Shown: in pieces, positions 2,714 through 60,404 of the stretch
Layout: each line of letters begins with the position of its first letter
Position numbering within the stretch: position 1 is the first letter of the stretch
Assembly: GCA_041391245.1 (NCBI GenBank)
Contig: JAWKOJ010000007.1
Coordinates: 141,883 to 205,882, forward strand
Reading direction: 5' to 3'
Length of the DNA: 64,000 nt
DNA from: Caldilineales bacterium
GTDB lineage: Bacteria > Chloroflexota > Anaerolineae > JAAEKA01
Position numbers and translations under genes: made by a program
The notes under the pieces: model-generated
Database searches by the model: none
Told to the model about the DNA's origin: nothing
The model's input: the letters and a program-made list of their open reading frames with translations, nothing else

Positions 2714-2731
2714 CCGCCGGCAAGGGAAACA

Positions 2732-2770
2732 CGCAGCGCCGGCCTGGTGTTCCATCAGGCCGGCGCTGCG
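2732..2770 (+). terminator. GC-rich hairpin just after the RND gene stop
   Basis: Perfect 15-bp inverted repeat cgcagcgccggcctg / caggccggcgctgcg with a 9-nt loop. The following T tract is weak (attcc). Confidence 0.45.
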
Positions 2771-2811
2771 ATTCCGGGCATGCCGTCAGAACACCGCAGC
2801 CCAATCCGACT

Positions 2812-3012
2812 TCGTAGGATAGCCCCTTGTGGGCGCCCGCAGGAGAAGCGGGACGGGCACAAGGCCCTATCCTGCGCCCTGACCCGACGCAAAACCGAGA
2901 TCGTAGGATAGCCCCTTGTGGGCGCCGCAGGAAAGCGGACGGGCACAAGGCCTATCCTGCACGCCCTGACCCGACGCAAAACCGAGATCGTAGGATAGCC
3001 CCTTGTGGGCGT
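2812..3012. repeat. Tandem repeat, about 88-bp unit x 2.3 copies, each unit with an internal imperfect palindrome
   Basis: Units start at 2812, 2901 and 2988 (tcgtaggatagccccttgtgggcg...). Each holds ggatagcccc ttgtg ggc ... gggcacaagg ccctatcc. Confidence 0.85.
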
Positions 3013-3051
3013 TCGGGACGACTGTTGCAGGGGGCAAGAATCGCCGCGTAT

Positions 3052-3080
3052 TTGACAGTGCTATTCGCGGCGTATACAAT
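3052..3080 (+). promoter_or_regulatory. Sigma70-like promoter for the corrinoid operon
   Basis: TTGACA (3052-3057), a 17-nt spacer, then TACAAT (3075-3080), about 90 nt upstream of the ATG at 3168. Confidence 0.5.
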
Positions 3081-3167
3081 CCCTTGGTTACGCCGCCGGG
3101 CGACCCCGCCCGCGCCGCGCCGCGGCATATCGCAGGCGCAACCGACCTTCCCGACGAGCCATACACC

Positions 3168-5420
3168 ATGCCTTCAACCTCTCCCGCCGCCACGGCTGAC
3201 CAGCGCAACGGAAACGCTCGATCTGAGCGTCGGCTGCACCGCGTGGTCTTTCAGCCGGCAGGCCGGCAGGGCGACGTGCCCGAAGGAACCAGTCTGCTGG
3301 ATGCCGCGCGGCTGCTGGGCGTGGAGATCGAGTCGATCTGCGGAGGCAAACAGACCTGCGGCAAGTGCCAGGTCCGCATCGAAACAGGCCAGTTCAGCCG
3401 CCTGGGGATCGAGTCGTCCCCCGATCACGTCACCCCGGAAGCGGCACGCGAGGCGCGCTACCGGGAGGAAAAGGGCCTGCTGCCCGGCTGCCGGCAAAGC
3501 TGCGCCGCCCAGGTGCTGGGCGACGTGCTGGTCACCGTGCCCGAGGAGAGCCGGACCCATAAGCAGGTGGTGCGCAAGGCCGCCAGCCAGCGGGCGTTCG
3601 AGGTCAACCCGGCCATGCGGCTGTGTTATGTCGAATTACCGGCGGCCACCATGGACGACGAACGCAGCGACTGGGCGCGGCTGGCCGACGAACTGGCGGC
3701 GCGCTTCGACCTCGACCGCGCGCAGCTGGCCATCGACCCGGTGATCCTGCCCGCCTTGCAGCCCGCGCTCAGCCAGGGCCGCATGCGCACGCCGGAGGGC
3801 GAGGCGGTCCACGCCGTGACGGCCACCGTCTGGCACGACCGGCAGGTGGTGCGGCTGCAACCGGGCTACCGCGAGGAACTGTTCGGCGTTGCGGTGGACA
3901 TCGGCACCACCACCATCGCCGCGCATCTGGCCGAGCTGCGCACGGGACGCATCCTGGCGACCGCCAGCCGCATGAACCCGCAGATCACCTACGGCGAAGA
4001 CCTGATGTCGCGGGTCTCCTACGTCATGGAGCACCGGGACGGGCTGGCGACCCTCCGCGGCGCGGTGATCGACGCCCTCAACGGCCTGGTGGCCGATGCG
4101 ACCGACGAGGCAGACCTGACCCCCGGCGATGTCGTGGAGATGACCGCGGTGGGCAACACCATCATGCACCACATCTTCCTCGGGATCGACCCGACGGCCC
4201 TGGGCGGCGCGCCGTTTGCCACCGCCATCAAGGAGTCGCTGGACGTAAAGGCCAGGGATCTGGGCCTGCGCATCGCTCCCGGCGCCAACGTTCACATCCC
4301 GCCCGTCGAGGCCGGCTACGTCGGCGCGGACAACGTGGCCGTCATCATCGCCGAGGAGCCGCACCGCCGCGATCCGGTCACGCTGCTGATCGACGTCGGC
4401 ACCAACGGCGAGATCGTCCTGGGCAACCGCCGGCGGCTGCTCTCCGCCTCCTCCCCCACCGGCCCTGCCTTCGAGGGCGCGCAGGTGCTGCACGGCATGC
4501 GGGCTGCGCCGGGCGCGATCGAGCGGGTGCGCATCGACCCGGCGACGCTGGAAGTGCAGTACAAGGTTATCGGACGGGACGAATGGGTGAGGTCGGAGAA
4601 GGAAAAGAAGGAAAGAAGGGCAGACGGGCAGATAGCAGATAGCAGATGGCAGATGGCGGATGGCGGAGATTCGACGCTGAGCGCCAGGGAGGCGCGCGAG
4701 TTGCGGCAGCGGCTGCGGGCTGAGGAGCAGGCGACGGTGAAGGCGGCCGGCATTTGCGGGTCCGGCATCATCGAGGCGATTGCCGAGCTGTTTCTGGCCG
4801 GGCTGATGGACGGCAGCGGGCGCCTGGTCCCGGCGGCGCCTACCGACCGGCTGCAGTTCGAGGGCGCCAAGGGTTATTTTGTGCTGGCCTGGCCCCACGA
4901 AACCTCCACCGGCCGCGCGATCGTGGTCCACAGCGACGACATCCGCGCCATCCAGCTTGCCAAGGCCGCGCTGTACGCCGGCGCCAAGCTGCTGATGCGC
5001 CACTACAACCTGGAGAGCGTCGACCGGATCGTGCTGGCCGGCGCGTTCGGCTCCTACATCGACCCGCAGCACGCGATGGTGCTGGGGCTGATCCCCGACT
5101 GCGACCTGGATCACGTCAGCGCCGTCGGCAACGCGGCCGGCGACGGCGCGCTGATCCTGTTGCTCAACCAGGAAAAGCGGCGCGAGGCCGACCAGGTCGC
5201 GCGCGAGGTGCACCACGTGCAGACCGCAACCGACCCGCATTTCGAGAACGAGTTCGTGGCGGCGATTCACATCCCGCACAAGACCGATGCGTTTCCGCAT
5301 CTCCAGCCGCTGCTGGACGCCGCCGAGGCGCAACGTATCGTGCCGCCGCCGCCGACAGAGAACGGTAGCCGCGCGGGCAGATCGCGCGCCGAACGCCGTG
5401 AGCGGCAGCGCGTGGCCTGA
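3168..5420 (+). CDS. Corrinoid activation/regeneration protein (RACo-like: N-terminal [2Fe-2S] ferredoxin domain plus ASKHA/DUF4445 ATPase)
   Basis: The ATG at 3168 lies within ORF 3003..5420. The cysteine motif CGGKQTCGKCQV is present, followed by the long ASKHA-type domain (VAVDIGTTTIAAHL, LIDVGTNGEIVLG, GICGSGIIEAI). Confidence 0.85.
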   Translation: MPSTSPAATADQRNGNARSERRLHRVVFQPAGRQGDVPEGTSLLDAARLLGVEIESICGGKQTCGKCQVRIETGQFSRLGIESSPDHVTPEAAREARYREEKGLLPGCRQSCAAQVLGDVLVTVPEESRTHKQVVRKAASQRAFEVNPAMRLCYVELPAATMDDERSDWARLADELAARFDLDRAQLAIDPVILPALQPALSQGRMRTPEGEAVHAVTATVWHDRQVVRLQPGYREELFGVAVDIGTTTIAAHLAELRTGRILATASRMNPQITYGEDLMSRVSYVMEHRDGLATLRGAVIDALNGLVADATDEADLTPGDVVEMTAVGNTIMHHIFLGIDPTALGGAPFATAIKESLDVKARDLGLRIAPGANVHIPPVEAGYVGADNVAVIIAEEPHRRDPVTLLIDVGTNGEIVLGNRRRLLSASSPTGPAFEGAQVLHGMRAAPGAIERVRIDPATLEVQYKVIGRDEWVRSEKEKKERRADGQIADSRWQMADGGDSTLSAREARELRQRLRAEEQATVKAAGICGSGIIEAIAELFLAGLMDGSGRLVPAAPTDRLQFEGAKGYFVLAWPHETSTGRAIVVHSDDIRAIQLAKAALYAGAKLLMRHYNLESVDRIVLAGAFGSYIDPQHAMVLGLIPDCDLDHVSAVGNAAGDGALILLLNQEKRREADQVAREVHHVQTATDPHFENEFVAAIHIPHKTDAFPHLQPLLDAAEAQRIVPPPPTENGSRAGRSRAERRERQRVA

Positions 5421-5536: not shown

Positions 5537-6229
5537 ATGAGCGACAACGGCTTAGACGCCTTACCCACCGAATTGCAAGATCTTTATCTCACCATGCAGG
5601 ACGACCTGTACGACGGGCTGAAGGACGAGGTCGTCGCAGCCACGGTCGCCGCGCTGGAGGAGTGGCAGCAGACGCCGGGTGAGATCCTGGCGCGCGGGCT
5701 GGTGGCCGGCATGGACATTGTCGGCGAGGACTTCCGCGATGGCATTCTGTTCGTGCCCGAGGTGCTGATGGCCGCCAAGGCCATGAAGGGCGCGATGGAG
5801 ATCCTGCGCCCCCTGCTGACCGACGCCAAGGACGTACAGCGGCAAGGCACCGTCGTCATCGGCACCGTCAAGGGCGACATCCACGATATCGGCAAGAACC
5901 TGGTGGGCATGATGCTGGAAGGCGCGGGTTTCGAGGTGATCAACCTGGGCATCAACGTGGACGCCGACCAGTTCATCGCCGCGCTGCGCGAGCACAACGC
6001 CGAGCTGCTGGGCATGTCGGCGCTGCTAACCACCACCATGCCCTACATGCGGGTGGTCATCAACCGCCTGGTCGAGGAAGGCATGCGCAAGGACGTCAAC
6101 GTCATCGTCGGCGGCGCGCCGCTGACCGAGGCGTTCGCCGAGGACATCGGCGCCGACCGGTACTGCGAGGACGCAGCCGTGGCCGTGGAGACCGCCAAGG
6201 CGTTGATGCGAATCAGGCGGGGCGAGTGA
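5537..6229 (+). CDS. Methyltransferase-cognate corrinoid (B12-binding) protein
   Basis: An N-terminal helical cap precedes a Rossmann B12 domain carrying the DxHxxG motif (GDIHDIGKN) and SALLTTTM. Confidence 0.85.
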   Translation: MSDNGLDALPTELQDLYLTMQDDLYDGLKDEVVAATVAALEEWQQTPGEILARGLVAGMDIVGEDFRDGILFVPEVLMAAKAMKGAMEILRPLLTDAKDVQRQGTVVIGTVKGDIHDIGKNLVGMMLEGAGFEVINLGINVDADQFIAALREHNAELLGMSALLTTTMPYMRVVINRLVEEGMRKDVNVIVGGAPLTEAFAEDIGADRYCEDAAVAVETAKALMRIRRGE

Positions 6230-6292
6230 TCAGTGATCGGTAACCAGTAATCAGTTGTCAGAGGTTACTGTTCACCAGACCGAAGGAGTATC

Positions 6293-8510: not shown

Positions 8511-9487
8511 GCGACTTCCCCAATCGACACCAACTCTACGAAGATCTGATCAGCGCCCGCCAGGAGCTTAAACGTTCCCTGTTGTTTCTGACCAGCGACG
8601 AGACCCGCCAGCCGGGCGTCGACGCCGAGTGGTGCGTCCTCGATGTCCTGAGCCACGTGACCGGGCGCGAGGCAACCCTGTTCGCCGCTGTGCGCAACCT
8701 GGTCAACGAGGGCGATCCATGTTTCCCCGACCCGCTGGACGAGCGCGAGTTCAACCTGGCAGCCATCCGCCGACGCAGCGGCTTCACCATGGCCGAGGTC
8801 ATGGACGAGCTGGACAGTCTGCGCCACCAGATCATGAAATATCTGCGCAAGCTGCCCAACCAGGCGCTCTTTGGCGCGCACGAGGTACGCGCCACGGGCG
8901 AAATGCAAAGCATCGCCGACGTACTCAACGCCACGATTGCCCACGACCAGGTGCATGCCGATGGCATCTGGCAGTGGCGTGCTGAGGCCGGCTTGCTGCA
9001 TCTGGAGGACTTTCGCCGCCACATCGTGCGCGAGCGGAACGAGTTTCTCAACGCGATCGGTGGGATGCACGAAAGCGAGATGGTCTCGGTGGAGACGTGC
9101 GGCTACTGGACGGTGCGCGACCTGATGGCGCACCTGTTGAGCTGGGACGAGGAGATCTACCGGACCGTCAAGCACTGGACGGGCAAGCGGGACTGGCAGG
9201 ACGGTGCGCTGTACGACGACGAGTGGAACGAAAGCCAGGTCAACGCGCGCGCCAAGCTCGACGTCATCGAACTGGCCGATGGGTTGGCCACCTGGCACCG
9301 GCGCACCATCCAGTATTGCGACAAAGCAGCGCCGGCCGATCTGGTAGCCGTCGCGCGCGCCCCCTGGGGCGAGCCCATGGCGTTGTTAAGCTTGCTGTAC
9401 GAGATGGCCGCCCACGATGCCGTTCACCGCTTACAGATCGAAACCATGCGCGGCGGCAAGCCAAGAGGGAGAAGACGCAGACCCTGA
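8507..9487 (+). CDS. DinB-family protein (tandem DinB-like four-helix domains)
   Basis: The ATG at 8507 overlaps the fdhD stop (ATGA). Two repeats of the DinB pattern occur (W.V.DVLSH / W.VRDLMAH ... H...H). Confidence 0.7.
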   Translation: MSDFPNRHQLYEDLISARQELKRSLLFLTSDETRQPGVDAEWCVLDVLSHVTGREATLFAAVRNLVNEGDPCFPDPLDEREFNLAAIRRRSGFTMAEVMDELDSLRHQIMKYLRKLPNQALFGAHEVRATGEMQSIADVLNATIAHDQVHADGIWQWRAEAGLLHLEDFRRHIVRERNEFLNAIGGMHESEMVSVETCGYWTVRDLMAHLLSWDEEIYRTVKHWTGKRDWQDGALYDDEWNESQVNARAKLDVIELADGLATWHRRTIQYCDKAAPADLVAVARAPWGEPMALLSLLYEMAAHDAVHRLQIETMRGGKPRGRRRRP

Positions 9488-9506
9488 GTGGGAGGAAATC
9501 CGCGCT

Positions 9507-10380
9507 TCAACCGGCCAGCGCCGTCCTGGCCGCCGACATCATCACGTCCAGGGGCGCCTCGTGGCCGGTCCATATCTCGAACGCCGCCGCGCCCTGAGCG
9601 ACCAGCATCTCAAGGCCGCCCTGCGTAGCACAGCCGGCCGCGGCAGCCTGGCGCAGCAGGCGAGTCTGTTCCGGCCGGTAGACCAGATCGTAGACCAGCG
9701 CGCCCGGCGGCAGAGGCAGCTCGTCCGGCCAGGGCGATGCGTCGACGGTGGGCCACATGCCTACAGGGGTGGTGTTGATGATGAGGTCGGGAGGAGGACC
9801 GGAAACGGTGAACGGTGAATTGGTGAATTGGTGAATGGTTAATGCGGGGGAGAGGGACGCGGCATGTTGGGCGAGATCGGCGGCGCGGTCTGGGCTGCGG
9901 TTCCAGATCGACAGGCTGGCAATGCCGCGCACTGCCAGCGCATAGACCACGGCGCGCGCCGACCCGCCCGCGCCCAGCAGCAGCGCTGACTTGCCCGCCA
10001 GGTCGAAGCCGCGCTCGTCCAGCGGATGCAGGAACCCCAACCAGTCGGTGTTGTCACCGCGCAGTACCGCAGGACTGGCAGTCCTCGGAAGGACTGCCAG
10101 TCCTTGGTCCACAGTGATCGTGTTCACCGCGCCGATGACGCGCGCCGCTTCGCTTAGTTCGTCCATCAGCGGCATGACGGCCTGCTTGTGGGGATTGTCA
10201 CGTTGACGCCGCGGTAGCCCCTCGCCGGCAGCCCGCGCACCACCTGCGCCACATCGGCCGGCGCGGTCGGCAGCGCGTCATAGCGCCCTCCAACCCCAGC
10301 GCTGCAAACGCCGCGTTGTGCATCGCCGGACTGATGCTGTGCCCCAGAGGCCAGCCGATGAGGCCGGTGAGAAAGGTCAT
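9507..10380 (-). CDS. aroE: Shikimate dehydrogenase AroE, with two apparent frameshifts
   Basis: Three frame pieces join in order (10380..10282, about 10280..10195, 10175..9507): GLIGWPLGHSISPAMHN, NVTIP(H)K, GDNTDWLGF, GAGGSARA, NTTPVGM. One shift is a G4 run at 10190-10193; G5 would restore NVTIPHKQAVMP. Confidence 0.8.
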
Positions 10381-10382
10381 GG

Positions 10383-10794
10383 TTAGCCGAACAGCGGCTT
10401 TGCCACTCCAGCGCCTGCTGCGCCATGGGGAGCAGCTTCTGCGCGGCTACCGCGACGCCGCCGGCTGCCGCCAGCACCTTGGCGATCCCCTCCAGCTTGC
10501 TGGTGATGACCGCGGCGCTGGGCTGCGGCTTGGCGGCCTGCGCTTCGACCACCTGCACGTCGGCGTCGATGATCTCGGCCGTGTCGGGGTCCAGGCCGGC
10601 AGCGGGCAGCGGCGCGCAGCTCGGCCAGCAGTGCGGTGAACTCGGCCAGCGAGACGCCCTGCGGCGTTGACCTGGGTAATGGTCTGATCGCGGCCGACGA
10701 AGGCCCCGCCGCCGGTGTCCACGTTGCCGCCAATGTATGCCCTGCCGCCGGTGGTCACGCTGGCGGGCGGGGTGGGTGGTTGTTTGTCAGTCAT
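10383..10794 (-). CDS. Hypothetical small protein with a Gly-rich N-terminal motif shared with the DGR targets; frame-disrupted
   Basis: ATG at 10794 follows GGAGG. The N-terminus is MTDKQ...TTGGRAYIGGNVDTGGGAFVGRDQTITQV. Plausible helical sequence continues in the two other frames, with a TAA at 10383-10385. Confidence 0.4.
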
Positions 10795-10932
10795 GGGTAC
10801 CTCCAGAATGTAGTGTAGATGCGCAGCGATGTTTGGATCACGAAGTTGCGAATGTCCGCGAAGGCACGAAGGACGCAATTGGACAGACTTACCCGTCGCG
10901 CTGCTGGGGGACTGGCTCGAAAAAAATCGGCG

Positions 10933-10958
10933 ATTCGATGGGGCACGCCCCATCGAAT
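10933..10958 (-). other. GC-rich hairpin about 60 nt downstream of VR1, followed by a T-run
   Basis: attcgatgggg / ccccatcgaat with a 4-nt loop. The homologous hairpin after VR2 differs by compensatory changes. On the minus strand tttttt follows after a short spacer. Confidence 0.6.
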
Positions 10959-10998
10959 TCCGGACAGGATTCAGGAACCGGAACTCAGAAGCCAGCAC

Positions 10999-13914
10999 TC
11001 AGAACTCAGAATTCGCTAGGGACACCACCACTCGAAACCCGAGGTAGTCGCCGAAGTCGTCAGGAAAGCTCCTGAAGCGGTACGCGCAACGAGCATATGT
11101 TCTATCTACATAAAATGCACCGCCGAAGTGTGAAAAGCGGTTCTCTCCCCGACCAGCGCACGCGGTCCACTCCCAGACGTTGCCGCTCATGTCCCACGCA
11201 CCGACAGGCTGGCGCCGCCAGGATAGGTACAGATAGCGGTTGTTCCCATGCCCTGGCCCGTCTTCTCGGCCACGTTGGCGTTGGCGGCATTGAACTCGCC
11301 GAGCCAGGGATACTCGCGGCCATCGACGCCTCTGGCGGCACGCTCCCATTCCTGTTCGGACGGCAAGCGCACCCGGTAGCCGGGCGGGATGGGTTCGCTG
11401 CCGCCGCCGGCCAAGACACGGCCTGCGGGCCACTATGCAGCCAGTTGCCGTAGGCCTGGGCTTCGTACCAGGAAACGCCGACCACAGGAAAAATGGGGTT
11501 GCACAGGTCAGGATCGTCCCAGAAGAAAGGCCGGTTGCGCTTGTCCAGCGGACGCAATTCTAGAATCGTTGCGTATAAATCCCTCAGGCTTTTGGCCTCG
11601 ATCAACTCCAGATCGGTGTCCGCGCCCTGACGCCACGCCCAGCCTTCCTTGCTCCACCAGCGTTCGTTGTCGTAGCCACCATCGGCCATGAAGCGGGCAT
11701 ACTGGGCGTTGGTGACTGGATATCTGGCGATCCAGTAGCGATGGGAGATAATGCGTTCTTCTCGGGTATCGCCGTAGAGGAACCTGCCTGGCTCCACCGG
11801 GACGAACGTGTCCAGGTCATCCGGCTGCCAACCAAGCCTGCCCAGTGCCAGTCCCGCTCGACGGCGCAAGGTCGGCGGCACGGCCATGTCCTGCATCGTC
11901 TCCACCAGCGCTGCGACCACCGTCTCCTTGCAGGTCGCGGTCACGCCGTCGGGCCAGGCGTCCAGCACGGCCTCGCCGGCCAGTGTCACGGCTTCGCCGG
12001 GCGGGCCGGGGCGTTCGCTGGCCAGCGCCGCCGCCACTTCGCCGGCCGCCAGGGGGCGGCGCTGCACGATGCCCAGGTAGCCCACCGTCAACAGGCTGGC
12101 CTCGCGCCACACCGGGTCGCCCACGTGCTGGCCCAGGAAGGCCGTCACCGGCTGCAGGTCCACCTGCCCCAGGGCGGCGATGCCCACCGCGGCCAGATAC
12201 TCCTCGAAGGTCAGGTGGATGAAGCCGTACTGACCCTCGCCCCTTGCCAGCAGCAGGCCGGTCTCGGCCGGGATGTCGCGCAGGAACTGCGCGGCCGCCG
12301 CCGGCGGGACGGCCGCGCCCTGCCCGCGGTAGATCTCCTCCAACTGCTGGCGCAGCGCCCACTCCGACACCAGCCCCACTCCCGGGCTTTCCCCGTGGAT
12401 CCACAGCGCCAGCGGGGCCGGACGGCCACGGTGGCCACCGTCCAGCTCGCGCCGGGCGCCTGCCGGCCCATGCTCCTCGCCCGGTTCCAACTGGAGATCA
12501 GCGTCTCTACGGCCTGGTGGTAGAGCTGCACCCGGCGCTCCGGCAGGGCGACCCCCTGGCGCTTCATCATGGCCAGCATGGTCAGCAGCAGCGGATTGGC
12601 GGCCAGCCGGCGCGCGGCCGGGTTGCGCTGCACGGTGTCCAGTAGCTCCTGGCGCTCGCGGCGCGCGTCGGCCGCGCTGATGGCCGTGTCGCCCCCCGCC
12701 TGGCGTTCCAGGGTCGCCGTCCAACGGCCCACGAAGGCCTCGATCTCATCGTCGTCGAAGTCCACCAGCGTACACTCGGCCAGGCCGTCCTGGCGTGGGC
12801 CGCACCGCCCGGTAGCCGACGATGCGGCTGGTCAGCACGAACTTGTTGCCGCGTCGCTGCTGGCCGGTGCAGAAGTCCATCACCCGCTCCACCACCCGAT
12901 GGCGCAAGGCGGCCTGCCGCACCTCGTCCAGGCCATCCAGCAGCAGCAGCGCCCGGCCGTGGGCCAGCGCATCGCCCACCATCTCCTCCATGGGCAGGTC
13001 GAGGCCGCTCGCTTTGTACGCGCCGGCGATGAACCGGTCCAGGCGCAGGTCGGGATCGTTGCTCAGCGCGCCGGCGTAGTCGGCCAGCGAGGCCAGCAGC
13101 GGCAGCCGCTCGCCGATGCCCAGCCGCTCGCCGCGCCCAGCGCCAGTTGCAGCGCCAGAACCTTGAGGAAGGTGGTCTTGCCCGCCCCCGGGTCGCCCAG
13201 GATGATCAGGCCGTCGTGCCGTCCCAGGAGGTCCAGGACGGGCACAGGCTCGCCCAGCCGGCCGGCCAGCGCCAGCGCGTCCGCCTCCGCTTCAGCCGGC
13301 TCCAGCGGCCGGCCGGCCAGGCGCAAGTGGCGCTGCCAGGTCTCGCCCTCCGGCATCTCCAGCCGCGCCTTGAGCGGCACGTAGAGATCGAGGAGCGGCA
13401 GTTGCAGGGGTATCCGGTCGTGGACGCCCATGCCCTTCAGTTGCAGATAGCGGTGGCGGTCCAGCAGATAGGTCAGGTAGGCCTCGGTCGCCCGGCGCAG
13501 CGCGGCGGGATCGCCGGCGGCCGGGCTGGCGCGTTTGCTCAGTTCGCCGGCGGTTTGGATCACCAGGTCGCGCTCGACGCGGATGCTGGTGATGTTGCCA
13601 CCGCCGGTGACGATGCTGTCGCGGCCGGTCCAATCGCCGCCATTGGTGCTGACGCTGCCGCCGACATAGGCGCCGCCGCCCGTATCAACGGTAGTGGTGG
13701 CCGCGGGCGACGGCTGGCGGCTGCGCCGGTAGCCCAGCACGGCCAGCAGCGCGCCGCCGGCCAGCAACAGGAGCTGCACCAGCGCCTCCAGGCCCTGGAT
13801 CAGCTCGCTGTTGGCCTCCGTGAAGCTCAGCAGGGCCGGCAGCCACAGCCGCGCGGTCAGGCCGAGCACGATAAGCAGCAGAGCCAGCAGGAGGAGCGGG
13901 AGGTAGCGTTTCAT
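10999..13914 (-). CDS. DGR target 1: N-terminal TM segments, STAND/NACHT-type P-loop NTPase and C-terminal FGE-sulfatase (C-type-lectin-fold) domain; at least 5 frame disruptions
   Basis: ORF pieces 13914..13063, 12991..12746, 12765..12211, 12724..11102, 11414..11187 and 11433..10999 join in order. Walker A is GDPGAGKTTF and Walker B LLLLDGLDEV. The FGE-type segments are RYPVTNAQYARF, VVGVSWYEAQAY, GNVWEWT and ARCAYR...GFRVV. Confidence 0.8.
11020..11094 (-). repeat. DGR variable repeat VR1 (3' end of target 1)
   Basis: Aligns without gaps to TR 14246..14320. There are 12 differences, all at TR coding-strand adenines. Confidence 0.9.
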
Positions 13915-13934
13915 GGGCGTCTCGTGTGCTGAGG

Positions 13935-14021
13935 CAGGACTGGCAGTCCTTGAGTCGAGCGGCAGACCTGGCCGTCGCGTCGAGACTTGCTACAGGGTAG
14001 GGCCAAGGACTGCCAGTCCTG
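13935..14021. repeat. Perfect 18-bp inverted repeat between the TR and the target-1 start
   Basis: caggactggcagtccttg (13935-13952) pairs with caaggactgccagtcctg (14004-14021). The same 15-mer word pair recurs inside aroE at 10071-10104. Confidence 0.8.
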
Positions 14022-14191
14022 ATGCGCCCCCGCGCCGCGCCGCCGTATGCGGTCAGGGCGCGGGGACCGGACGATATTTGGCCGGCCGCTGTGCGCAAGG
14101 CGAACAACGGACGCGACCCGGGCCGGACCGGGCTAGCTTTTGGGGCGCCGTCCCGCATCGCTGTGATGGCGGGATCTACCGGCCGGGACTT

Positions 14192-14225
14192 AAGTGCCGG
14201 GCACTTCGGAAAGTGCCCGGCACTT
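14192..14225. repeat. Palindromic hairpin 20 nt 3' of the TR (minus-strand sense)
   Basis: aagtgccgggcactt (14192-14206), cgga, aagtgcccggcactt (14211-14225): a 15-bp stem with a 4-nt loop. Confidence 0.8.
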
Positions 14226-14245
14226 GCCGCTTGGGGAAAAGCCAT

Positions 14246-14320
14246 GGACACCACCACTCGAAACCCGTTGTTGTTGTTGAAGTTGTCAGGTATGTTCCTG
14301 TTGCGGTACGCGCAACGAGC
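14246..14320 (-). repeat. DGR template repeat (TR)
   Basis: Minus-strand core AAC AGG AAC ATA CCT GAC AAC TTC AAC AAC AAC AAC, flanked by invariant anchors gctcgttgcgcgtaccgc and gggtttcgagtggtggtgtcc. It lies 40 nt after the avd stop. Confidence 0.9.
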
Positions 14321-14360
14321 GGCGGTGGTCCGGCCCGAGAGAACGCAGGCCGCAAAACTC

Positions 14361-14708
14361 TCACGGCCGCGGTTTCTCCTTCAACGATTCCATCCAGCCG
14401 CCCAGCAGTCGACCCAACTCGTCCACCATACGGGAGACGTGAGCGTATTGGCCGGGCGTCAGCAGTTCCAGGTCGCTGCACAGGCGCAGGTAGGTGCGCA
14501 GTTTTGTCAATGTGACGTCGGCCTCGCGCAGCTTCTGCTGCGGCGCTGGACTGTAGGCGGCCTCGATCAGTTGCTCCTGCCAGGTAAGCGCGGTGCGCTG
14601 TACGGCTTCAGCCAGCACAAAGCGCTGCTGGCGAGGGAACTTGATTGTAGCCGGAATCAACCAGCGGAGCAAGTCATAGGTGCGGGTGAAGATGGGAGAT
14701 TGCTGCAT
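14361..14708 (-). CDS. avd: DGR accessory variability determinant (Avd-like four-helix-bundle protein)
   Basis: ATG at 14708 (MQQSPIFTRTYDLLRWLIPATIKFPRQQRF...). It is about 115 aa, basic and helical, matches the Avd/23S-IVS-protein pattern, and overlaps the RT 3' end by 35 nt. Confidence 0.8.
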   Translation of the reverse strand: MQQSPIFTRTYDLLRWLIPATIKFPRQQRFVLAEAVQRTALTWQEQLIEAAYSPAPQQKLREADVTLTKLRTYLRLCSDLELLTPGQYAHVSRMVDELGRLLGGWMESLKEKPRP

Positions 14709-15774
14709 GCTGATACCTTGGCACGGGCGCGGCCAACAACGAGCGTCGCAGACCGCGCGTGTCACCGTGGCGCGCGTGGGCAATCCATCCCTGCACGCGG
14801 CGCTGCAACTCCTCGTAGGTCAGATCGCCGGCGGCTACGGCGCGGTAAGCAATGCGCAGCCGGCGGGCAAATGCCACGCCGTTGCGCCGCTTCAGCCGCC
14901 GGTGGTCGGGAAAGACACGGAAGCCCAGAAACGGAATGCCGCCGGCCACCGGGTAGACGGTGCTCTCGCGCTCGTGTAGCGTCAGTCGCAGGCCGGCCAG
15001 CAGGCTGCGGATCGCGGCTTTCCAGGCCCAGAGCTGGCGCTTGTCGTCGGCGAAGAGCAGGAAATCATCGACGTAGCGCAGGTAGCCCTGGCAGCGCAGG
15101 CGGCGCTTGACAAACTGGTCGAGCTCGTTGAGATAGACGTTGGCCCAGAACTGGCTGGTCAGGTTGCCGATGGGCAGGCCGCGCGGCCGCTGCATGGCGA
15201 ACAGGTCGTCGCCGGGAAACATCACCGGCTGGTAGATCTCGTCCAGCACGCCCTGCCCGCCGGCCAGGATGCGGTCCGCCAGCCACAACGCCTTCGGATC
15301 GACGATCTTGCGGGCGATGACGGCGCGCAGTATTTGGTGGTCCACCGAAGGAAAGAACTGCTCGACATCGCACTGCAGCACGTAGGGATAGCGCCGCGCG
15401 AAGGCCTGGGCGCGGTCCAGCGCGGCGTGCGTGCCCTTGCCCACCTGGTTGGCGTAGGAGTCGCCGATGAAGGTGCGCTGGAAGATCGGCTCGATGACGT
15501 TGCACAGCGCGTGATGCACCACCCGGTCGCGGAAAGGCGCGGCCGATACCAGCCGCCGCTTGGGATCGCGGATGGTGAACGAGCGGTACGGGCCGGGCCG
15601 GTAGGTCAGAGCGAGCAGCTCCTCTTCCAATCGCAAGAGGTTGCTTTCCAGGTCGAACTCGAAAGCGGCGACAGAGCGCTGGCCGCGTTTTCCTCTGGCG
15701 GCCTTGCGAAAGGCCTGGTGCAGGTTCTCGAAGGAAGCGATGGTCGGATAGAGGTCGGCGTAGGATTCCGTCAT
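14674..15774 (-). CDS. DGR reverse transcriptase
   Basis: ATG at 15774 (MTESYADLYP...). RT motifs include the DGR-diagnostic LPIGNLTSQFWANVYLNELD (IGxxxSQ) and the catalytic RYVDDFLLF. Confidence 0.92.
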   Translation of the reverse strand: MTESYADLYPTIASFENLHQAFRKAARGKRGQRSVAAFEFDLESNLLRLEEELLALTYRPGPYRSFTIRDPKRRLVSAAPFRDRVVHHALCNVIEPIFQRTFIGDSYANQVGKGTHAALDRAQAFARRYPYVLQCDVEQFFPSVDHQILRAVIARKIVDPKALWLADRILAGGQGVLDEIYQPVMFPGDDLFAMQRPRGLPIGNLTSQFWANVYLNELDQFVKRRLRCQGYLRYVDDFLLFADDKRQLWAWKAAIRSLLAGLRLTLHERESTVYPVAGGIPFLGFRVFPDHRRLKRRNGVAFARRLRIAYRAVAAGDLTYEELQRRVQGWIAHARHGDTRGLRRSLLAAPVPRYQHAAISHLHPHL

Positions 15775-15854
15775 CTTCCAGACCTGCACGGTCAGTTCTT
15801 CCGATCCGCGCGTCCGGCAATCGGCGGTACTCCGCTCGTGGAAAAATCCGGCGA

Positions 15855-15878
15855 TTCGCCGGGGCGTGCCCCGGCGAA
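15855..15878 (-). other. GC-rich hairpin about 60 nt downstream of VR2, followed by a T-run
   Basis: ttcgccgggg / ccccggcgaa with a 4-nt loop. It is the covarying counterpart of 10933-10958. Confidence 0.6.
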
Positions 15879-15918
15879 CCCGGACAGGATTCAGGAACCG
15901 GAACTCAGAAGCCAGCAC

Positions 15919-18900
15919 TCAGAACTCAGAATTCGCTAGGGACACCACCACTCGAAACCCGACGTCGTAGCCGAAGCCGTCAGGAACGCCCCCGTAGCGG
16001 TACGCGCAACGAGCGAACCTTTGTTCTAAATACCAGGATCCGCCGCGCACGATGCGCAGGTCGGGGCCGGCCAGCGTCTCGCGGCCGTCGGCGGGGTCGT
16101 AGGGGTAGCCGTAGTCCGGCCTGGCCGTTTTGCCGCCCCACTTGCTGCGGGTCCACTCATAGACGTTGCCTGCCATGTCCAGCAGGCCATGCGCGCTGCG
16201 GCCGTCGGGGAAGAGGCCCACCGGGCTGGTCTGCTCCAGGCCGGCCTCCTCCGTGGCCCGTCACTCCTGCCAGCCGCCTTACCACGGCCACGCCGGCCGT
16301 CGCCGCTAACGCTCCGCCTTCTCCCACTCGGCCTCGCTGGGCAGATGCGCACCGGTAGCCGGGCGGGATGGCGACGGACTGGTCCGCGACCCGCAGCACG
16401 CCGCCGGACGCCCGCAGCCGGCCGTCCAGCCACCTGCACCAGGCCAGCGCCTCGTACCACGAAACGCCCACCACCGGCCGGTTGGCCGCGCCCCACCTGG
16501 GGTCGTCCCACCACCAGGGCTTCTTGCGCTTGTCAACGGTTCGATCTGCCAGCCAATCGGCGATGTCCTTGCGCAGATCCTCTGGCAGGTCGTCGTAGGG
16601 CGACAGGTCGGGATCCGCTCCGTTGCGCCAGGCCCAGCCTTCGTCTGTCCAGTAGTCCGGGTTGTCGTAGCCGTCCCCCTCGACGAAGGGGCGGAACTGG
16701 GCGTTGGTCACCGGAGTAGCGCGCCACGAAGTACAGCGGCAGGTCCACCCGGTGGGCGTCCCGCTCATCGTCCCAGGCCATATCCGTCGCTCTCGTCGCT
16801 TCCCATGGTGAAGGCCCGGCCGGATGGCCTGCCCAGTCGATGTCAGGCAGCGGCGACAGCCCATCCACCAGGCCGACGCCGGGCCAGGTCGCCCAGCTTG
16901 CCCAGGGCATCGCCGGCCCGCGAACTCGCCGGCCGTCAGGCGGCCGCCTTCGACCAGACGGACCAGCCAGTAACGGATGGCGCCCAGCAGGTCGCCGTAG
17001 TCCTGTCCCTCGCGAACCCGGTCCGCCAGCCGCAGCTCGGCGGCTGCCTCGCCACCAGCCCCACCATGCGCCAGCCAGCTCGTTGCGGCTCCCTGGCCGG
17101 ATTGAGGGGCGCTTAGCTCCTTCGGGAGCGTACCGCCGCTGCCGATGCCGCCGCACCCGTGGGCAGCAACAAGATCTCGCGCCACCAGTCCATGTCCTCG
17201 TCTTCAGCTCCTGAGGCGCTGGTAGAAGTCGGTCTGGTCGAACAGGTAGCTGGCGGCCAGGTATTCCTGGAAGGAGCGGTGCGGAAAGGCGTAAACCTCC
17301 TCCCGGCGTGGGATCAGCAGCCCCGCCCGATGGTGGAGATATTCCAGCAGCGTGTCCGGCGCCACCTTGCCCAGCAGCGGTTTGAAGGCCCACAAGACCC
17401 GTTCCACGGGGATGTCGGCCGGCGCGTCGCGTCCCTCGGCGTCCTGGCGTTGGCGTTCCTGGGCGTCGGCCAGCTTGTTGAGCGCCGTGCGCAGCGGGCC
17501 TTCGCCTGTCTCCAGCACCTGTAGAATCCCCGGCTCGACCACCGGCTGGCCGCCAGGGCCGACCGCCTCGCGCGCCCGCTGCCAGCGGGAGAGCAACAGG
17601 CTGACCGACTGCTCGTACAGATCGGCCCGATCCTCGGGCAGCTGACCGCGACTGGAGTGCAAGGTCGCCATCAGCGTCAGCAGCAAAGGCGAAGGTGGCC
17701 AGGTCGGCCAGATAGGGCGCTCCACCAGAGCCTCCTGCAGATCTGGCCCTTCTTGCGCGCCGTCTCCTCGCTCCACCCCATGGCCGGACGCACCGCCTGC
17801 TGCCAGCGCCCGATGAAGCGCCTGCTGTTCTTCATTGAAAGGCGCCAGGGCAGGGTCGTGAAGGCCTCCAGCCGCCACTGCGGATCGGCGTAGGCGTAGG
17901 GGCGGGCGGTGACCGAAATCGTCCGGTGTCTGCGAGGCAGCGTGGCCGCCATTCCGGCCACTGCTTCCAGCGAAGGGTATGGCGGCAGCGGCCGGCCTCC
18001 GGCGCTTCGTCCAGGCCGTCCAGCAGCACCAGTCCGCCTTCCTGGCACAGCCGCCGCTGGACCTCCGGCAGCAGCAGCGCCGCGGCCAGTTGGCCAGAGC
18101 GCGTGCCAATATCCGCTTCAGCGCCTGCCACAGCATGCCGGCATCGCCGCGGCGGGCGTCAGCCGGGATGTGCTCGGCCGCCACACTCGCGCGGGATCGG
18201 GCGCGACAGCCGGCCCTGCAGGATGTCGGGCAGAAGGCCGGTCTGCCGGAGCGGTCGGGGTCGGCCAGCAGGTAGCTCAGATGGTTGACGAAGGTGGTCT
18301 TGCCGCTGCCGGCGTCGCCCACCAGGACCGAGCGCGGCTCGCTGGCCAACGCTGCCAACGCAGGCACGCGGCCGCCTGCTTCACCCAGGCCGCGCACCAG
18401 CCGCAGCGCCCAGCCGCGCTCGGTCTCCGCCTCTCTGGGCGCCGAGGGGATCACATCCAGGTCCACGTAGACATCGGGCAGCGGAATGGTCTGTTGTTCG
18501 CCGGTTCCCAGCCACTTGGCGTCGATGACGCCCAGCGGCGAACGGCGACAGTCGGCCGCCAGCCACTGGTAGTAAGCGTGCAACAGCGTATCCACCGGCG
18601 CCAGCTCGGGCGCAAGTCGTTGGCGCTCGCCAGAAACGTTGATCACGATAAGACCGTTTGCGTCGCCGCCGACGATGAACGAGCCATCGGCCAGCGTTGC
18701 CATCACCTTGTCGCGCCCGACGAACTCGCGCGCTGAAACATTGCCGGCCACCAGAGACCCGCCGCCGGTATTGATCTGAAGTGCTGCAGTTGAGCCTCAC
18801 TGCGGCGCAGCGACTCGCACCTCGCCGGCGCCGGCTGCCGCCAGGAGGCTGGCAATGAGGTCACCGCACCCGCTGCAAATTGCTGCGCAGCGTGTCGAGA

Positions 18901-18920
18901 TCGATGGGCAAGTTTGTCAT
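15919..18920 (-). CDS. DGR target 2: STAND/NACHT-type NTPase with C-terminal FGE-sulfatase-fold domain; heavily frame-disrupted (at least 10 breaks), possibly a pseudogene
   Basis: ATG at 18920 (MTNLPIDLDTLRSNLQ). Recognisable pieces include VLVGDAGSGKTTF, LVLLDGLDE, SPLLLTLMATLH, FPHRSFQEYLAA, ARYPVTNAQFRPF, VVGVSWYEALAW, PSEAEWEKA and GNVYEWT...ARCAYR...GFRVV, scattered over all three frames. Confidence 0.7.
15940..16014 (-). repeat. DGR variable repeat VR2 (3' end of target 2)
   Basis: Aligns without gaps to TR 14246..14320. There are 14 differences, all at TR coding-strand adenines. Confidence 0.9.
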
Positions 18921-18997
18921 TGTCGCCTACCTTTCTGGCAGTCGGCTTAACCCAAAACTTCGCAACTCGCCGGTTCTGCGTAACACTGGTCACCAGG

Positions 18998-20302
18998 CTA
19001 ACCATTCTCTAGCTCCGCGCCCAGGCTTGCCAGCATGCGCTCGAAGCCGGGGAAGCTGTCGGCGATGCAGCCGGTGTCCTCGACCAGCACCGGACCGTCG
19101 GCCGCCAGCCCGGCTACGACCAGCGCCATGGCCAGGCGGTGGTCCCCGTGGCTGTTGACCGGCGCGCTGCGCAGCCTGGTCGGACCCTCGACCACGAAGC
19201 CATCGGGCCGCTCCTCGATCTGTGCCCCCAGGGTACGCAGCTCGGCCACCACTGTCGCGATGCGGTCGGTCTCCTTGACGCGCAGCTCGGCCGCGTCGCG
19301 CACGACGGTGCGACCAGTTGCCTGGGTGGCCAGCACCGCGATCACCGGCAGCTCGTCGATCAGGCGCGGGATCAGCGCGCCGCCGATCTCTGCGCCGCGC
19401 AGCTGGCCGGGCTGCACGACCAGGTCGGCTACCGGCTCGCCGGCCTCGTCGCGCAGGTTATCGGCGCGCACCGCGCCGCCCATCTGCGCCACGATGTCGA
19501 GAATGCCGGTGCGGGTCGGGTTGACGCCCACAGCCTCCAGGGTGACGTGGCCGCCGGGCGCCAGCAGCGCCGCGGCCAACAAGAACGCGGCCGAGGAGAT
19601 GTCGCCCGGCACGGTGATGTCCAGCGGCAGGAGCGGGCGCTTGGGTCGTTCGCTCGCGATGACCTGGCCGACCCGGCCCGCCTGCGCGCCCATCGCAGTC
19701 AGCATCCGTTCGGTGTGGTCGCGGGTCGGCGCCGGCTCGCGCACGACAGCCAGCCCGTTGCTGTAGAGGCCGGCCAGCAGGATGGCCGACTTGACCTGCG
19801 CGCTGGCTACCGGCATGGCGTAGTCGACGCCGCTCAGCGGGTGTCCTTGAATGGCCAGCGGCGCCTGCCTGCCGCCCTGCCGTCCGTGAATGGTCGCGCC
19901 CATCAGTCGCAGCGGTTCTACGATGCGGCCCATGGGACGACGGGTCAGTTGCGCACTGCCGTCGAGGATGCTGAAGAACGCCTGGCCGGCCAGCAGGCCG
20001 GCCAGCAGGCGCATGGTCGTGCCGGAGTTGACGCAGTCCAGCGGGCGCGCCGGCTCCTGCCAGCCGTGCAGTCCGGCGCCGTCGATGCGCAGTTCGGTCG
20101 TGGCTGGCTGGTCGATGGTCACGCCCAGCGATCGCAGCACACCGACGGTTGCCAGGCAGTCGCCGCCGGGCAGGAAGTTGCGGATGCGGCTCTCGCCCTC
20201 GGCCAGCGACGCAAACATGGCGGCGCGGTGCGAGATCGACTTGTCGCCGGGGACGCGGGCGGTACCGAGAAGTTCCTGGGCAGGATGGATGATGAGGTTC
20301 AT
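18998..20302 (-). CDS. aroA: 3-phosphoshikimate 1-carboxyvinyltransferase (EPSP synthase)
   Basis: 434 aa. Contains VPGDKSISHRAAMFASLAEG, NSGTTMRLL and DHRLAMA. Confidence 0.92.
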   Translation of the reverse strand: MNLIIHPAQELLGTARVPGDKSISHRAAMFASLAEGESRIRNFLPGGDCLATVGVLRSLGVTIDQPATTELRIDGAGLHGWQEPARPLDCVNSGTTMRLLAGLLAGQAFFSILDGSAQLTRRPMGRIVEPLRLMGATIHGRQGGRQAPLAIQGHPLSGVDYAMPVASAQVKSAILLAGLYSNGLAVVREPAPTRDHTERMLTAMGAQAGRVGQVIASERPKRPLLPLDITVPGDISSAAFLLAAALLAPGGHVTLEAVGVNPTRTGILDIVAQMGGAVRADNLRDEAGEPVADLVVQPGQLRGAEIGGALIPRLIDELPVIAVLATQATGRTVVRDAAELRVKETDRIATVVAELRTLGAQIEERPDGFVVEGPTRLRSAPVNSHGDHRLAMALVVAGLAADGPVLVEDTGCIADSFPGFERMLASLGAELENG

Positions 20303-22326: not shown

Positions 22327-22535
22327 AGCATAACCTCGTGGTAGAGTCTGTGAAATTCTACATCAAGTGGTGGCATTTGGCGGAAAGCTGGGAGACGTAG
22401 TGCGTACTGCGTAATGCGTAGCTGGTGACCGGCTCGTAAAGTGCCGTGGGTGTGTAAAGAAAACAGCGGTCCACTGATAGCGCGGACACCGCAGAGGCAC
22501 CCAGACCCACCAACACACAATACGCACTACGCTGC

Positions 22536-23549: not shown

Positions 23550-23660
23550 GGGATTACCTGCCTTTTGTTGGTTTGCTGATGGCAGATAGCAGATGGCTGA
23601 TTGCCGATGCCAGGGAGTAAGCGTGCTATCGGCTATCGGCCATACGCCATACGCAGTCTG

Positions 23661-37557: not shown

Positions 37558-37670
37558 ATAGCAAATAGCAGATGGTAAGTGATCAGTCGTCAGTGGTCAG
37601 TGATCGGAGGTCGGATGTGGCCAGAATGTCGTCGCGTTCCAGCCATCGGCCATCGGCTATCTGCCATCCG

Positions 37671-40345: not shown

Positions 40346-40580
40346 GCAAAGAAGGAGGGGAAGGGAGTGGGAGAGAAGGAGAGGGAGAGAGGGATAGAGG
40401 GGGAAGGGGGGAAAGGAGGGAAAGGGAGAGGACGGAGCGTCCGTGATTGGAGGACGAGGATGGGTCTTGTGTCTTTTCACGCCTCACGTTTTACGTTTCA
40501 CGCGCCGAGACGCGCCGCGTCACGTCTCTCTTTTTCCCTCCTTTCCTTTTTTTCCTTCCTCTTACGTTTCCCTCCCCCGG
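40346..40580. repeat. About 90 nt polypurine tract and about 55 nt polypyrimidine tract flanking a cacg-word core, in a divergent promoter region
   Basis: 40346-40435 is almost exclusively G/A (ggggaagggagtgggagagaaggagaggg...). 40525-40580 is almost exclusively C/T (tctctctttttccctcctttcc...). Confidence 0.7.
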
Positions 40581-47274: not shown

Positions 47275-47428
47275 GAGCAGCAGAGTGACAGAATGACAGA
47301 GTGGCAGAGTGACAGAATGACAGAGTGGCAGAGTGACAGAGCGACAGGACAGAGCAGCCAGCGCTGACCCTCTGACTCTCTGACTCTCTGTTCTTCTGAC
47401 CTTCTGTTCTTCTGACCTTCTGACCTTC
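47275..47428. repeat. Intercistronic low-complexity element: gacaga/gtggcaga words (24-nt unit x 2) followed by ctctgac/ttctgac words
   Basis: cagagtgacagaatgacagagtgg occurs at 47281-47304 and again at 47305-47328. The complementary-composition CT-rich half is at 47368-47428. Confidence 0.75.
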
Positions 47429-48634: not shown

Positions 48635-48685
48635 TCAGTTATCAGTTACCAGTGATCAGAACTGATTACTGACCTCTGATAACTG

Positions 48686-52483: not shown

Positions 52484-52600
52484 ATTGGGGACTGGTAAAT
52501 TGGTAAGTTAGTAAATTGGTTAAGTGGGTAGGGCGGCTCGCGGCGGCGACTCTCCACCAATCTACCAATCTACCAATCTACCAATCTACCGATGGCAAAC
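52484..52600. repeat. Intercistronic word hairpin: ggtagattgg/ggtaaattgg words versus ccaatcta x 4
   Basis: ggtagattgg at 52479-52488. The 8-nt unit ccaatcta is repeated 4 times at 52557-52590; it is the reverse complement of the left-hand word. Confidence 0.7.
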
Positions 52601-60323: not shown

Positions 60324-60404
60324 AGCTGGTTACATAGATTTGGTTTTCTGGCCACCGCAGAGTGCGCACACTCGCCATCCAAAGCCCAACGCTCAACGCC
60401 CAAC

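Follow-up and report, generated by a model that had tools for sequence, protein, structure and literature searches.

Two genes within a 64-kb stretch of DNA from a Caldilineales bacterium (Chloroflexota), called here the window, end in the variable repeats (VRs) of one diversity-generating retroelement (DGR). The same 60 nt follow both VRs, and a GC-rich hairpin follows each copy of this 60-mer. Do these sequences direct the retroelement to its targets, or do they end the transcripts of the target genes? We favor, at slightly less than even confidence, a cis-acting 3' boundary module of DGR targets, which would be a clade-specific version of the signal composed of the initiation of mutagenic homing (IMH) sequence, a spacer, and a hairpin. 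Across the clade defined by the reverse transcriptase (RT), a heptad array capped by a perfect inverted repeat, rich in GC and with a loop of 3–4 nt, accompanies VRs and never template repeats (TRs).

The VR flanks of the window

The features of the cassette all lie on the minus strand, between 10.9 and 18.8 kb, in the order target gene 2-VR2, 60-mer, hairpin 2, RT, Avd, TR, target gene 1-VR1, 60-mer, hairpin 1. Nearly every mismatch to the TR falls on a TR adenine, 13 of 14 in VR1 and 15 of 16 in VR2, and this cassette is a bona fide DGR with two targets. The repeats and the elements that follow them are:

10960–11019, minus strand: flank copy 1 (the 60-mer), exact duplicate, in-phase CTG array, with period 7 called by Tandem Repeats Finder at 10981–11011
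15880–15939, minus strand: flank copy 2, identical to copy 1, in-phase CTG array, period 7 by Tandem Repeats Finder
10933–10958, no strand assigned: hairpin 1, an 11-bp perfect inverted repeat ATTCGATGGGG/CCCCATCGAAT with the 4-nt loop CGTG in coding sense
15855–15878, no strand assigned: hairpin 2, a 10-bp perfect inverted repeat TTCGCCGGGG/CCCCGGCGAA with the 4-nt loop CACG in coding sense
10920–10932, minus strand: conserved tail after hairpin 1, TCGCCGA followed by T7, the T-run (10920–10926) beginning 6 nt past the stem
15842–15854, minus strand: conserved tail after hairpin 2, TCGCCGG followed by A and T5 (TCGCCGGA/T5), with the T-run at 15842–15846
11020–11094, minus strand: VR1, 3' end of target gene 1, delimited by the 80-nt three-copy repeat family and alignment with the TR
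15940–16014, minus strand: VR2, 3' end of target gene 2, delimited in the same way
14246–14320, minus strand: TR, downstream of Avd, third member of this repeat family by alignment

The 60-mer (CCGGACAGG...GAATTCGCTAG) occurs exactly twice in the window, where none is expected (100 shuffles), and both copies stand directly 3' of a VR on the coding strand. The identity reported in the first-pass annotation is thus exact, with coordinates corrected by one base, and the exact 60-mer is not a generic repeat of the 64 kb. The flank begins at the last base shared by TR and VRs, which end in ...GTGGTGGTGTCC / GGGTTTCGAGTGGTGGTGTCC. They diverge directly after it, as had been noted: both VRs continue with CTAGCG and the TR with ATGGCT, an IMH*-like sequence. 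Nucleotides 1–21 of the 60-mer encode L-A-N-S-E-F-stop (..VVVSLANSEF*), that is, the last six codons and the TGA stop codon of each target (10999–11001 in target 1 and 15919–15921 in target 2). The remaining 39 nt are untranslated. Read in coding sense, the 60-mer has a period of 7: GAATTCT GAGTTCT GAGTGCT GGCTTCT GAGTTCC GGTTCCT GAATCCT. It comprises about eight heptad units of consensus RNTTCTG, contains 33% T and 13% A, and has a GC content of 53% versus 66% for the window, about 11 points under that of the locus. It is therefore a degenerate heptad tandem array and not a unique recognition sequence. Rfam 15 covariance models gave no match at either 60-mer or hairpin up to an E-value of 1 (window positions 9000–19000).

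Folding confirmed the GC hairpins predicted 3' of the two arrays. All stem pairs are Watson-Crick, 6 of the 11 in hairpin 1 and 8 of the 10 in hairpin 2 being GC, and as RNA hairpin 2 gains one G-U and one G-C pair. Segments of 48 and 47 nt fold as RNA at −21.8 (hairpin 1) and −27.5 kcal/mol (hairpin 2), with z about −3, and either DNA strand at −13.9 to −15.7 kcal/mol. Between the hairpins, double substitutions have changed two neighboring base pairs, A-T to C-G and T-A to C-G. The loops are mutually reverse-complementary, as a single inversion of the palindrome would give. The paired changes from which the first-pass annotation concluded selection on the structure are therefore real, but they do not prove selection: only two copies are compared, the changed pairs are adjacent, the loop is inverted, and template switching in a palindrome yields the same outcome. 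They establish that the inverted repeat is maintained and that it probably folds in DNA, by selection or by mechanism alike. The different stems present at the same position across the clade are stronger evidence of structural constraint.

Flanks of VRs and TRs in related DGRs

Homologues of the window RT were located on contigs at 89, 81, 80, 74, 73, and 70–72% identity, together with 80 further loci, taking one genome per species. TR/VR pairs were identified by blastn in all loci and kept if their mismatches were adenine-specific. The resulting set of 66 distinct VR 3' flanks and 50 distinct TR 3' flanks represents about 50 related DGRs from several phyla. The closest loci (L001, L003, and L006) have the same order of target, RT, Avd, TR, target, small open reading frame (ORF), and aroE. 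In each of them a near-identical array, e.g., CTAGCGAATTCTGGCTTCTGAATTCTGAGTTCTGAATTCCGGTTCCTGAATCCTGTCCG, follows each VR, and the hairpin is unrelated in sequence to those of the window (CTGGGGAAGGGGC-TTG-GCCCCTTCCCCAG). The same cassette, with an array after each VR and a GC hairpin of another sequence, is found in relatives whose RTs are 89, 81, 80, and 72–75% identical to that of the window.

At least three in-phase heptads are present in 43 of the 66 VR flanks, in none of the 50 TR flanks, and in 37 of 5,000 random windows (0.7%), an enrichment at VR ends of about 90-fold over random windows. The 264 units collected give the consensus R-N-T-T-C-T-G. Arrays with at least four in-phase CTG units number 44 in the 1.06 Mb of loci, and 30 of them adjoin a VR end. 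RTs of only about 50% identity, and different phyla, still share the unit, its orientation, and its start at the VR end. The module accompanies this DGR type in metagenome-assembled genomes (MAGs) assigned to Gammaproteobacteria (L010 and L026), Desulfatiglandales (L038), Actinomycetota (L056), Planctomycetota (L083), and many Chloroflexota. Similarly, a perfect GC-rich hairpin of at least 9 bp lies within 130 nt in 29 of the 66 VR flanks, versus 4 of the 50 TR flanks and 74 of 3,993 random windows (1.9%). On the sense strand, 27 of these 29 have their G-rich arm first (5'). The stems of at least 9 bp at the equivalent position comprise 27 different sequences: sequence differs between relatives and pairing is kept. 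With a threshold of 7 bp, 40 of the 66 VR flanks carry a hairpin. At the stem ends, inspected for a wobble bias that would suggest action as RNA or as DNA, 9 sense G-T and 2 antisense cases stand beside 27 other, with almost no extension of the stem.

Several side observations concern these hairpins. A G-run mirroring the 5' arm precedes the hairpin in 28 of the 40 related VR flanks, and the window hairpins are without it. Examples are GGGGGGAG-TCT-GAGGGGGGC..GCCCCCCTCAGA and GGGGATGGGGTCTGGGGAAGGGG, with four G4 runs; loci include L001 (5057–5107), L003 (3482–3529 and 8527–8573), L006, L010, L016, L019, L029–L032, L044, L051, L052, and others. In sequence, such a mirror repeat has what an intramolecular purine triplex or a G-quadruplex beside a cruciform would require. 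In many relatives a second small hairpin built on GCGAAGC (e.g., CCGCGCGAAGCGCGG) lies downstream of the array, followed by TCGCG and often by an A/T run (L008 14760–14840, L009 5410–5450, and the VR flanks of L024, L031, L037, L055, L058, and L084). The oligonucleotide d(GCGAAGC) forms an unusually stable DNA mini-hairpin. Tails of the type (T)CGCG/CGA plus a T-run occur in some relatives, and the window tail TCGCCG(A/G) plus T-run may be a remnant of the GCGAAGC hairpin. A general function of the flank in closing all reading frames was rejected: the three frames are closed within 45 nt in 16 of 66 VR flanks (3 of 50 TR flanks and 80 of 5,000 random windows), which is enriched but not general.

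The flanks of one cassette resemble each other more than their genes do. Over the 450 nt upstream of the VRs the two window targets are 64% identical, in agreement with the diverged gene bodies noted before, whereas target 2 shares 82% identity with L003 target A and 88% with the L001 target. Because the upstream coding DNA is closer to orthologues than to the other target, the targets are old paralogues. A recent segmental duplication was rejected as the cause of the identity, the paralogues having diverged before the genomes split. Conversely, flank identity is 100% between the window copies and 97% between the L003 copies, versus 80–93% between genomes. This pattern recurs in many other two-target cassettes; in seven of them the flanks are 90–98% identical and the upstream regions 60–78%. 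In the window the identical block spans the VR to the hairpin foot, and the next 60 nt are 70% identical. These alignments indicate that the flank evolves in concert within a cassette. Two signals have to be kept separate here: the 100% identity shows gene conversion, and retention of the array over deep divergence shows constraint. The 60-nt identity thus reflects gene conversion and not only selection. The 39 untranslated nt are 87–93% identical to L001 (RT 89%), on par with the adjacent coding DNA (88%). The single L001 target (1964–5038) is chimeric: its N-terminal 500 aa are 86–89% identical to window target 1, and in the lectin domain it shares 73% identity with target 2 versus 42% with target 1. 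On this sequence comparison, L001 provides direct evidence of recombination between paralogous DGR targets.

At the TR/VR boundary, a fixed difference, TCC-C-T(A/G)GC in VRs versus TCC-A-T(A/G)GC in TRs, recurs in many of the closer relatives. This C/A difference behaves like the IMH/IMH* distinction. The window TR is in addition followed by a hairpin of its own:

14199–14232, no strand assigned: TR-side hairpin, 15-bp perfect inverted repeat AAGTGCCGGGCACTT-TCCG-AAGTGCCCGGCACTT, −21.5 kcal/mol as DNA, z −6.8

It starts 14 nt past the shared GTGGTGGTGTCC end and is inserted before the conserved GGCCGGTAGATCC motif of the DGR RNA. This insertion is common to the window and L003, is absent in L001 and L006, and may be a small mobile palindrome. 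Because the TR has this 15-bp hairpin, a hairpin alone cannot mark the recipient here; the mark would be, if anything, the C/A boundary and the array.

Across the clade, TR 3' flanks have a motif set of their own, GGCCGGTAGATCC...GGGACGGCGCC...CCGGTCGCG...GGCCAAATA. In about 50 loci it can be written as the series GGCCGGTAGATCC-hairpin-GGGACGGCGCC ... AGCCAGCCCGGTCCGG(C)CCCGGTCGCG ... GGCCGGCCAAATA, exemplified by window positions 14040–14190 (minus strand) and L003 5370–5470. The series presumably corresponds to a structured DGR RNA spacer used by the RT-Avd complex; it matched no Rfam family in the window.

Function of the array and the hairpin

Experimental knowledge of the rules governing DGR target sites comes mainly from phage BPP-1, with Legionella also cited (PMC5758913). 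In BPP-1, the IMH and a downstream GC hairpin or cruciform are necessary and sufficient for targeting; the structure of the stem matters and its sequence does not, whereas the sequence of the loop does (Guo et al. 2011, PMC3240598). In phage DGRs this hairpin lies 4–34 bp from the VR and its loop has the consensus 5'-GRNA on the sense strand (PMC3240598). The window module resembles the phage signal in standing immediately 3' of the VR, where the likeness of TR and VR stops, and past the stop codon of a C-terminal C-type-lectin VR. Its stems (10–11 bp, perfect, GC-rich, with a 4-nt loop) compare with the phage GC stems of 7–10 bp, which can form on either strand, and in both systems stem sequence varies between elements with pairing kept. 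More widely, GC-rich inverted repeats were found downstream of the IMH in 34% of 372 DGRs (Wu et al. 2018, PMC5758913). As in that survey, the feature is present in part of the elements (29–40 of the 66 flanks, depending on stem length) and few hairpins carry terminator signatures. Group IIC introns, discussed in PMC3240598, are a further parallel as retroelements that read a DNA stem-loop at gene ends by structure over sequence; unlike them, the DGR has no intron or ribozyme and would home as cDNA into a repeat instead of inserting.

On the reading as a boundary module, the C of the VR, as opposed to the A of the TR, would together with the array tell the recipient (VR) from the donor (TR). 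The array would be easily melted and strand-asymmetric, and the hairpin could be extruded as a cruciform. Both would make it easier for the complex of RT, Avd, and cDNA, or for a nuclease or recombination factor of the host, to engage the VR at its 3' end, and this engagement would set the start of cDNA integration. Breaks or repair at the site would explain the conversion from VR to hairpin between paralogous targets. Compared with known DGR boundary modules, the additions are a heptad spacer, flanks that evolve in concert between targets, and a purine mirror repeat before the hairpin in most relatives.

A bolder version, which we consider quite unlikely, regards the heptad array as an undescribed, clade-specific homing recognition code, an extended IMH acting with the mirror repeat and the hairpin, with breaks driving conversion. 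RT-Avd or a host OB-fold protein would recognize the array in the form of T-rich single strands. In most relatives the mirror repeat and hairpin (G6AG-TCT-GAG6C / GC6TCAGA) would form a triplex or a G-quadruplex as well as a cruciform, and homing breaks would keep all flanks of a cassette identical. As a weaker step, a mechanistic link to the same machinery might extend to the heptamer arrays that abound in intergenic DNA of these multicellular bacteria.

A number of observations weigh against a homing signal of the phage type, and against the boundary module more generally. The homing role is inferred from the association with VRs across the clade. The loops CGTG and CACG do not fit GRNA and are inverted between the two copies, and GRNA fits only 1 of 40 clade hairpins. 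In both copies, 56 nt separate the hairpin from the point where TR/VR homology ends (clade median 64, range 32–136), outside the 4–34 bp of phage DGRs, although the extent of the IMH is undefined here and the true gap between IMH and hairpin may be less than 56 nt. The interval is filled by a heptad array, none of which is reported for phage DGRs. In the phage model no comparable inverted repeat follows the TR, whereas the window TR carries one, stronger than the VR-flank hairpins and 14 nt downstream of its end; TR flanks of the clade rarely do (4 of 50). The phage signal is also characterized experimentally, and the window module is known here from its sequence. Within the clade, a hairpin of 7 bp or more is missing from the first 140 nt of 26 of the 66 VR flanks (e.g., L011, L022, and L026), and 23 have fewer than three in-phase heptads. 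Intergenic DNA, both in this genome and in related ones, often contains period-7 arrays built of other units, and both window copies do carry T-runs. C-type-lectin gene ends free of a VR, sought as a control, were not found, all 34 extra matches being TRs or VRs missed by our detection. No cognate-specific pairing was found either between the flanks and the RNA 3' of the TR: when 47 flanks were compared by RNAduplex, on both strands, with the 258 nt 3' of cognate and noncognate TRs, mean cognate ranks were 22.8 and 22.4 versus 23 expected. Base pairing between flank and DGR RNA was rejected on these chance-level ranks. The target-recognition element of the first-pass annotation therefore stands as a VR-specific feature of dozens of related DGRs but departs from the phage model in its loop, its spacing, and the hairpin at the TR.

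The position at gene ends would fit a function at the mRNA 3' end equally well. An RNA 3'-end element of the target genes is unlikely, but it is the alternative to be taken most seriously. The hairpin, with or without the T-run, would terminate transcription or protect the mRNA 3' end, the heptads would be a protein-binding or all-frame stop region of the 3' untranslated region, and the whole would be kept for the target genes and not for the DGR machinery. Like intrinsic terminators, both elements stand just past a stop codon as stable GC-rich RNA stem-loops (−22 to −27 kcal/mol) with a T-run nearby, within 7 nt in both copies. Absence at TRs would be expected too, a TR being no gene end, and terminators follow some DGR targets in the survey of Wu et al. 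(PMC5758913). The T-run that had been noted after each hairpin begins, however, only after a spacer of 6 nt in one copy and 7 nt in the other, and not 0–2 nt past the stem; a T-run at 0–2 nt is found in none of the 40 VR-flank hairpins of at least 7 bp. A terminator scan of the window called 4 sites versus 4.8 in shuffles, thus no excess, and neither main hairpin was called. Its sole match at either element is a weak alternative hairpin of copy 2, CCGGCG-AAT-CGCCGG, adjoining ATTTTT.

The distribution of T-runs in the clade bears on the same alternative. A T-run of at least 5 within 15 nt follows 8 of the 27 hairpin copies upstream of an RT, and only 1 of the 13 copies after a second target, that one being the window. 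In L001, L003, L010, L016, L019, and L073 the second target has the same hairpin as the first and no T-run, so the hairpin is conserved independently of the T-run. From this distribution, the T-run seems to have been added mostly to the copy preceding RT-avd-TR, where it may reduce read-through into these genes. We therefore rejected plain termination as the primary function of the main hairpins, on the failed scan and on the lack of any stem-abutting T-run among 40; the terminator that had been proposed as the other option is a weak alternative, somewhat likelier in the window, where both copies have T-runs, but it does not account for the whole pattern. The broader RNA 3'-end explanation also leaves unexplained the G-rich mirror repeat 5' of the stem (28 of 40), the strand polarity (27 of 29), and the homogenization of the flank but not of the gene within a cassette.

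Very unlikely, in our view, is a by-product: heptamer arrays and palindromes arising by slippage and template switching would have no DGR-specific function, and the flank would have come along when the lectin domain was duplicated, its identity being maintained by conversion seeded by VR homology. Tandem heptamers are indeed widespread. Cyanobacterial repeats of the STRR (short tandemly repeated repetitive) type are intergenic tandem heptamers. Intergenic direct repeats of the heptamer TAACTGA occur in Beggiatoaceae and cyanobacteria (MacGregor 2015, PMC4679880). The window holds more than 12 other period-7 arrays away from VRs (e.g., 4627–4664, 9807–9844, and 48630–48692), and the related loci hold 14 non-VR arrays. 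Recombination between paralogous targets is visible in L001, with the N-terminus of target 1 and the C-terminus of target 2, and the inverted loop and adjacent double compensatory changes are what template switching in a palindrome would produce without selection. Like the TAACTGA and STRR repeats, the VR-flank array consists of intergenic tandem heptamers with CTGA and stop codons in all three frames. Its unit is, however, RNTTCTG, with only CTG(A) in common, and it travels with the DGR cassette across phyla. TAACTGA repeats cover the ribosome-binding region directly before a start codon; the flank array is instead fixed at VR 3' ends, begins in the last codons of the upstream gene, and lies 105 nt (RT) or 164 nt (ORF at 10795) from the next start. 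A by-product would account neither for the enrichment at VR ends nor for the conservation of unit, orientation, and start to about 50% RT identity, nor for untranslated nucleotides that match the neighboring coding DNA in conservation; gene conversion can account for identical copies inside one genome, not for retention over such depth.

Finally, a regulatory leader controlling translation or transcription of the downstream RT-avd-TR operon is highly improbable: although in L022, L026, L067, and L072 the array ends about 10–30 nt before the RT start with no hairpin, the TAACTGA class lies upstream of start codons in the same orientation (PMC4679880), and the window has a TAACTGA-like array 18 nt upstream of the ATG at 48711, the array at the cassette is separated from the RT start by 105 nt that include a stable hairpin, second-target arrays precede unrelated genes (small ORF/aroE here, a peptidase in L010, an insertion sequence element in L011), and these are already largely as conserved as the first.

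The boundary module would matter for a whole lineage of DGRs. Clade 5 DGRs of multicellular bacteria diversify STAND NTPase/C-type-lectin sensors of conflict systems (Dore et al. 2024, PMC10907252). The window shares with them NACHT/STAND targets with an FGE-sulfatase-type lectin, a chromosomal cassette with two targets, and a filamentous Chloroflexota host; its RT most likely belongs to the same lineage. The word "hairpin" is absent from the text of PMC10907252, where VR 3' flanks are not analyzed, and heptad arrays, G-rich mirror repeats, and flank homogenization are undescribed in PMC5758913 as far as its text shows; we found no description of the three at DGR targets in the literature searched, the coverage of which was partial. 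The cis requirements of this large chromosomal lineage, which diversifies putative immune sensors of the STAND type, have not been defined so far. The composite of VR end, RNTTCTG array, and GC hairpin is a concrete and transplantable candidate signal, which would help to find remote or orphan targets in genomes and would offer a handle for retargeting these DGRs in protein engineering. Metagenome contigs scanned with the distal 22-mer TTCCGNTTCCTGARTCCTGTCC yielded nothing but three copies of a single unrelated coding sequence; the scan was non-exhaustive, missed the pattern-bearing JGI contig of L006, and carries little weight. The concerted evolution of the flank beside diverging coding DNA suggests that recombination is concentrated at this site, which bears on the question of cDNA integration.

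Genes and other repeats of the locus

The genes of the cassette are:

About 13914 to 10999, minus strand: target gene 1, STAND NTPase with FGE-sulfatase/C-type lectin fold (Pfam match)
About 18778 to 15919, minus strand: target gene 2, NACHT/STAND NTPase with FGE-sulfatase-type lectin domain (Pfam match)
14674–15774, minus strand: DGR reverse transcriptase, 366 aa translated from the ATG at 15774 (RVT_1 match)
14364–14708, minus strand: Avd accessory protein, bAvd fold (PF22296, E-value 1e-19)

The Pfam matches in the cassette are RVT_1, bAvd, NACHT/nSTAND3, and FGE-sulfatase. The RT, which begins 81 nt downstream of hairpin 2, is 100% identical to a protein of a Caldilineales MAG (Chloroflexota), and Avd is 93% identical to that of L001. 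Both reading frames are intact. Conversely, matching the intact orthologues requires at least five frame switches in target 1, at least one to three in target 2, and at least one in the small ORF after VR1, and aroE likewise needs frame switching (small ORF/aroE region about 10795–9510). The target genes are intact in L001, L003, and L006, with 978–1,024 aa. These frame switches are more likely indel errors of the assembly than signs of pseudogenes.

Other repeats are numerous. The palindrome AGGACTGGCAGTCCT is present in repeated copies at 10070–10104, 13936–13970, and 14005–14020; an inverted pair lies in the aroE-proximal DNA, and the other copies lie between the TR and the start of target 1. 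Period-7 arrays away from VRs were detected at 4627–4664, 6225–6255, 9807–9844, 22396–22420, 23578–23654, 37554–37602, 37642–37668, 39211–39235, 40475–40502, 48630–48692, 60379–60406, and 61977–62007, and period-8 arrays at 47281–47428 and 52493–52590. These period-7/8 arrays are mostly intergenic and have differing units; intergenic heptad arrays are also present in the related Chloroflexota loci L019, L031, L036, and L055. Longer tandem repeats lie at 2812–3011 (87-nt unit, 2.3 copies, 94% matches) and 60404–60651 (128-nt unit, 1.9 copies, 92% matches). Between a stop codon and the ATG after it, the array at 48630–48692 forms an inverted pair, TCAGTTA-type then TAACTGA-type. The pair is similar to the TAACTGA repeats described from Beggiatoaceae and cyanobacteria (PMC4679880), and its second part (48660–48692) is a true TAACTGA-like array.

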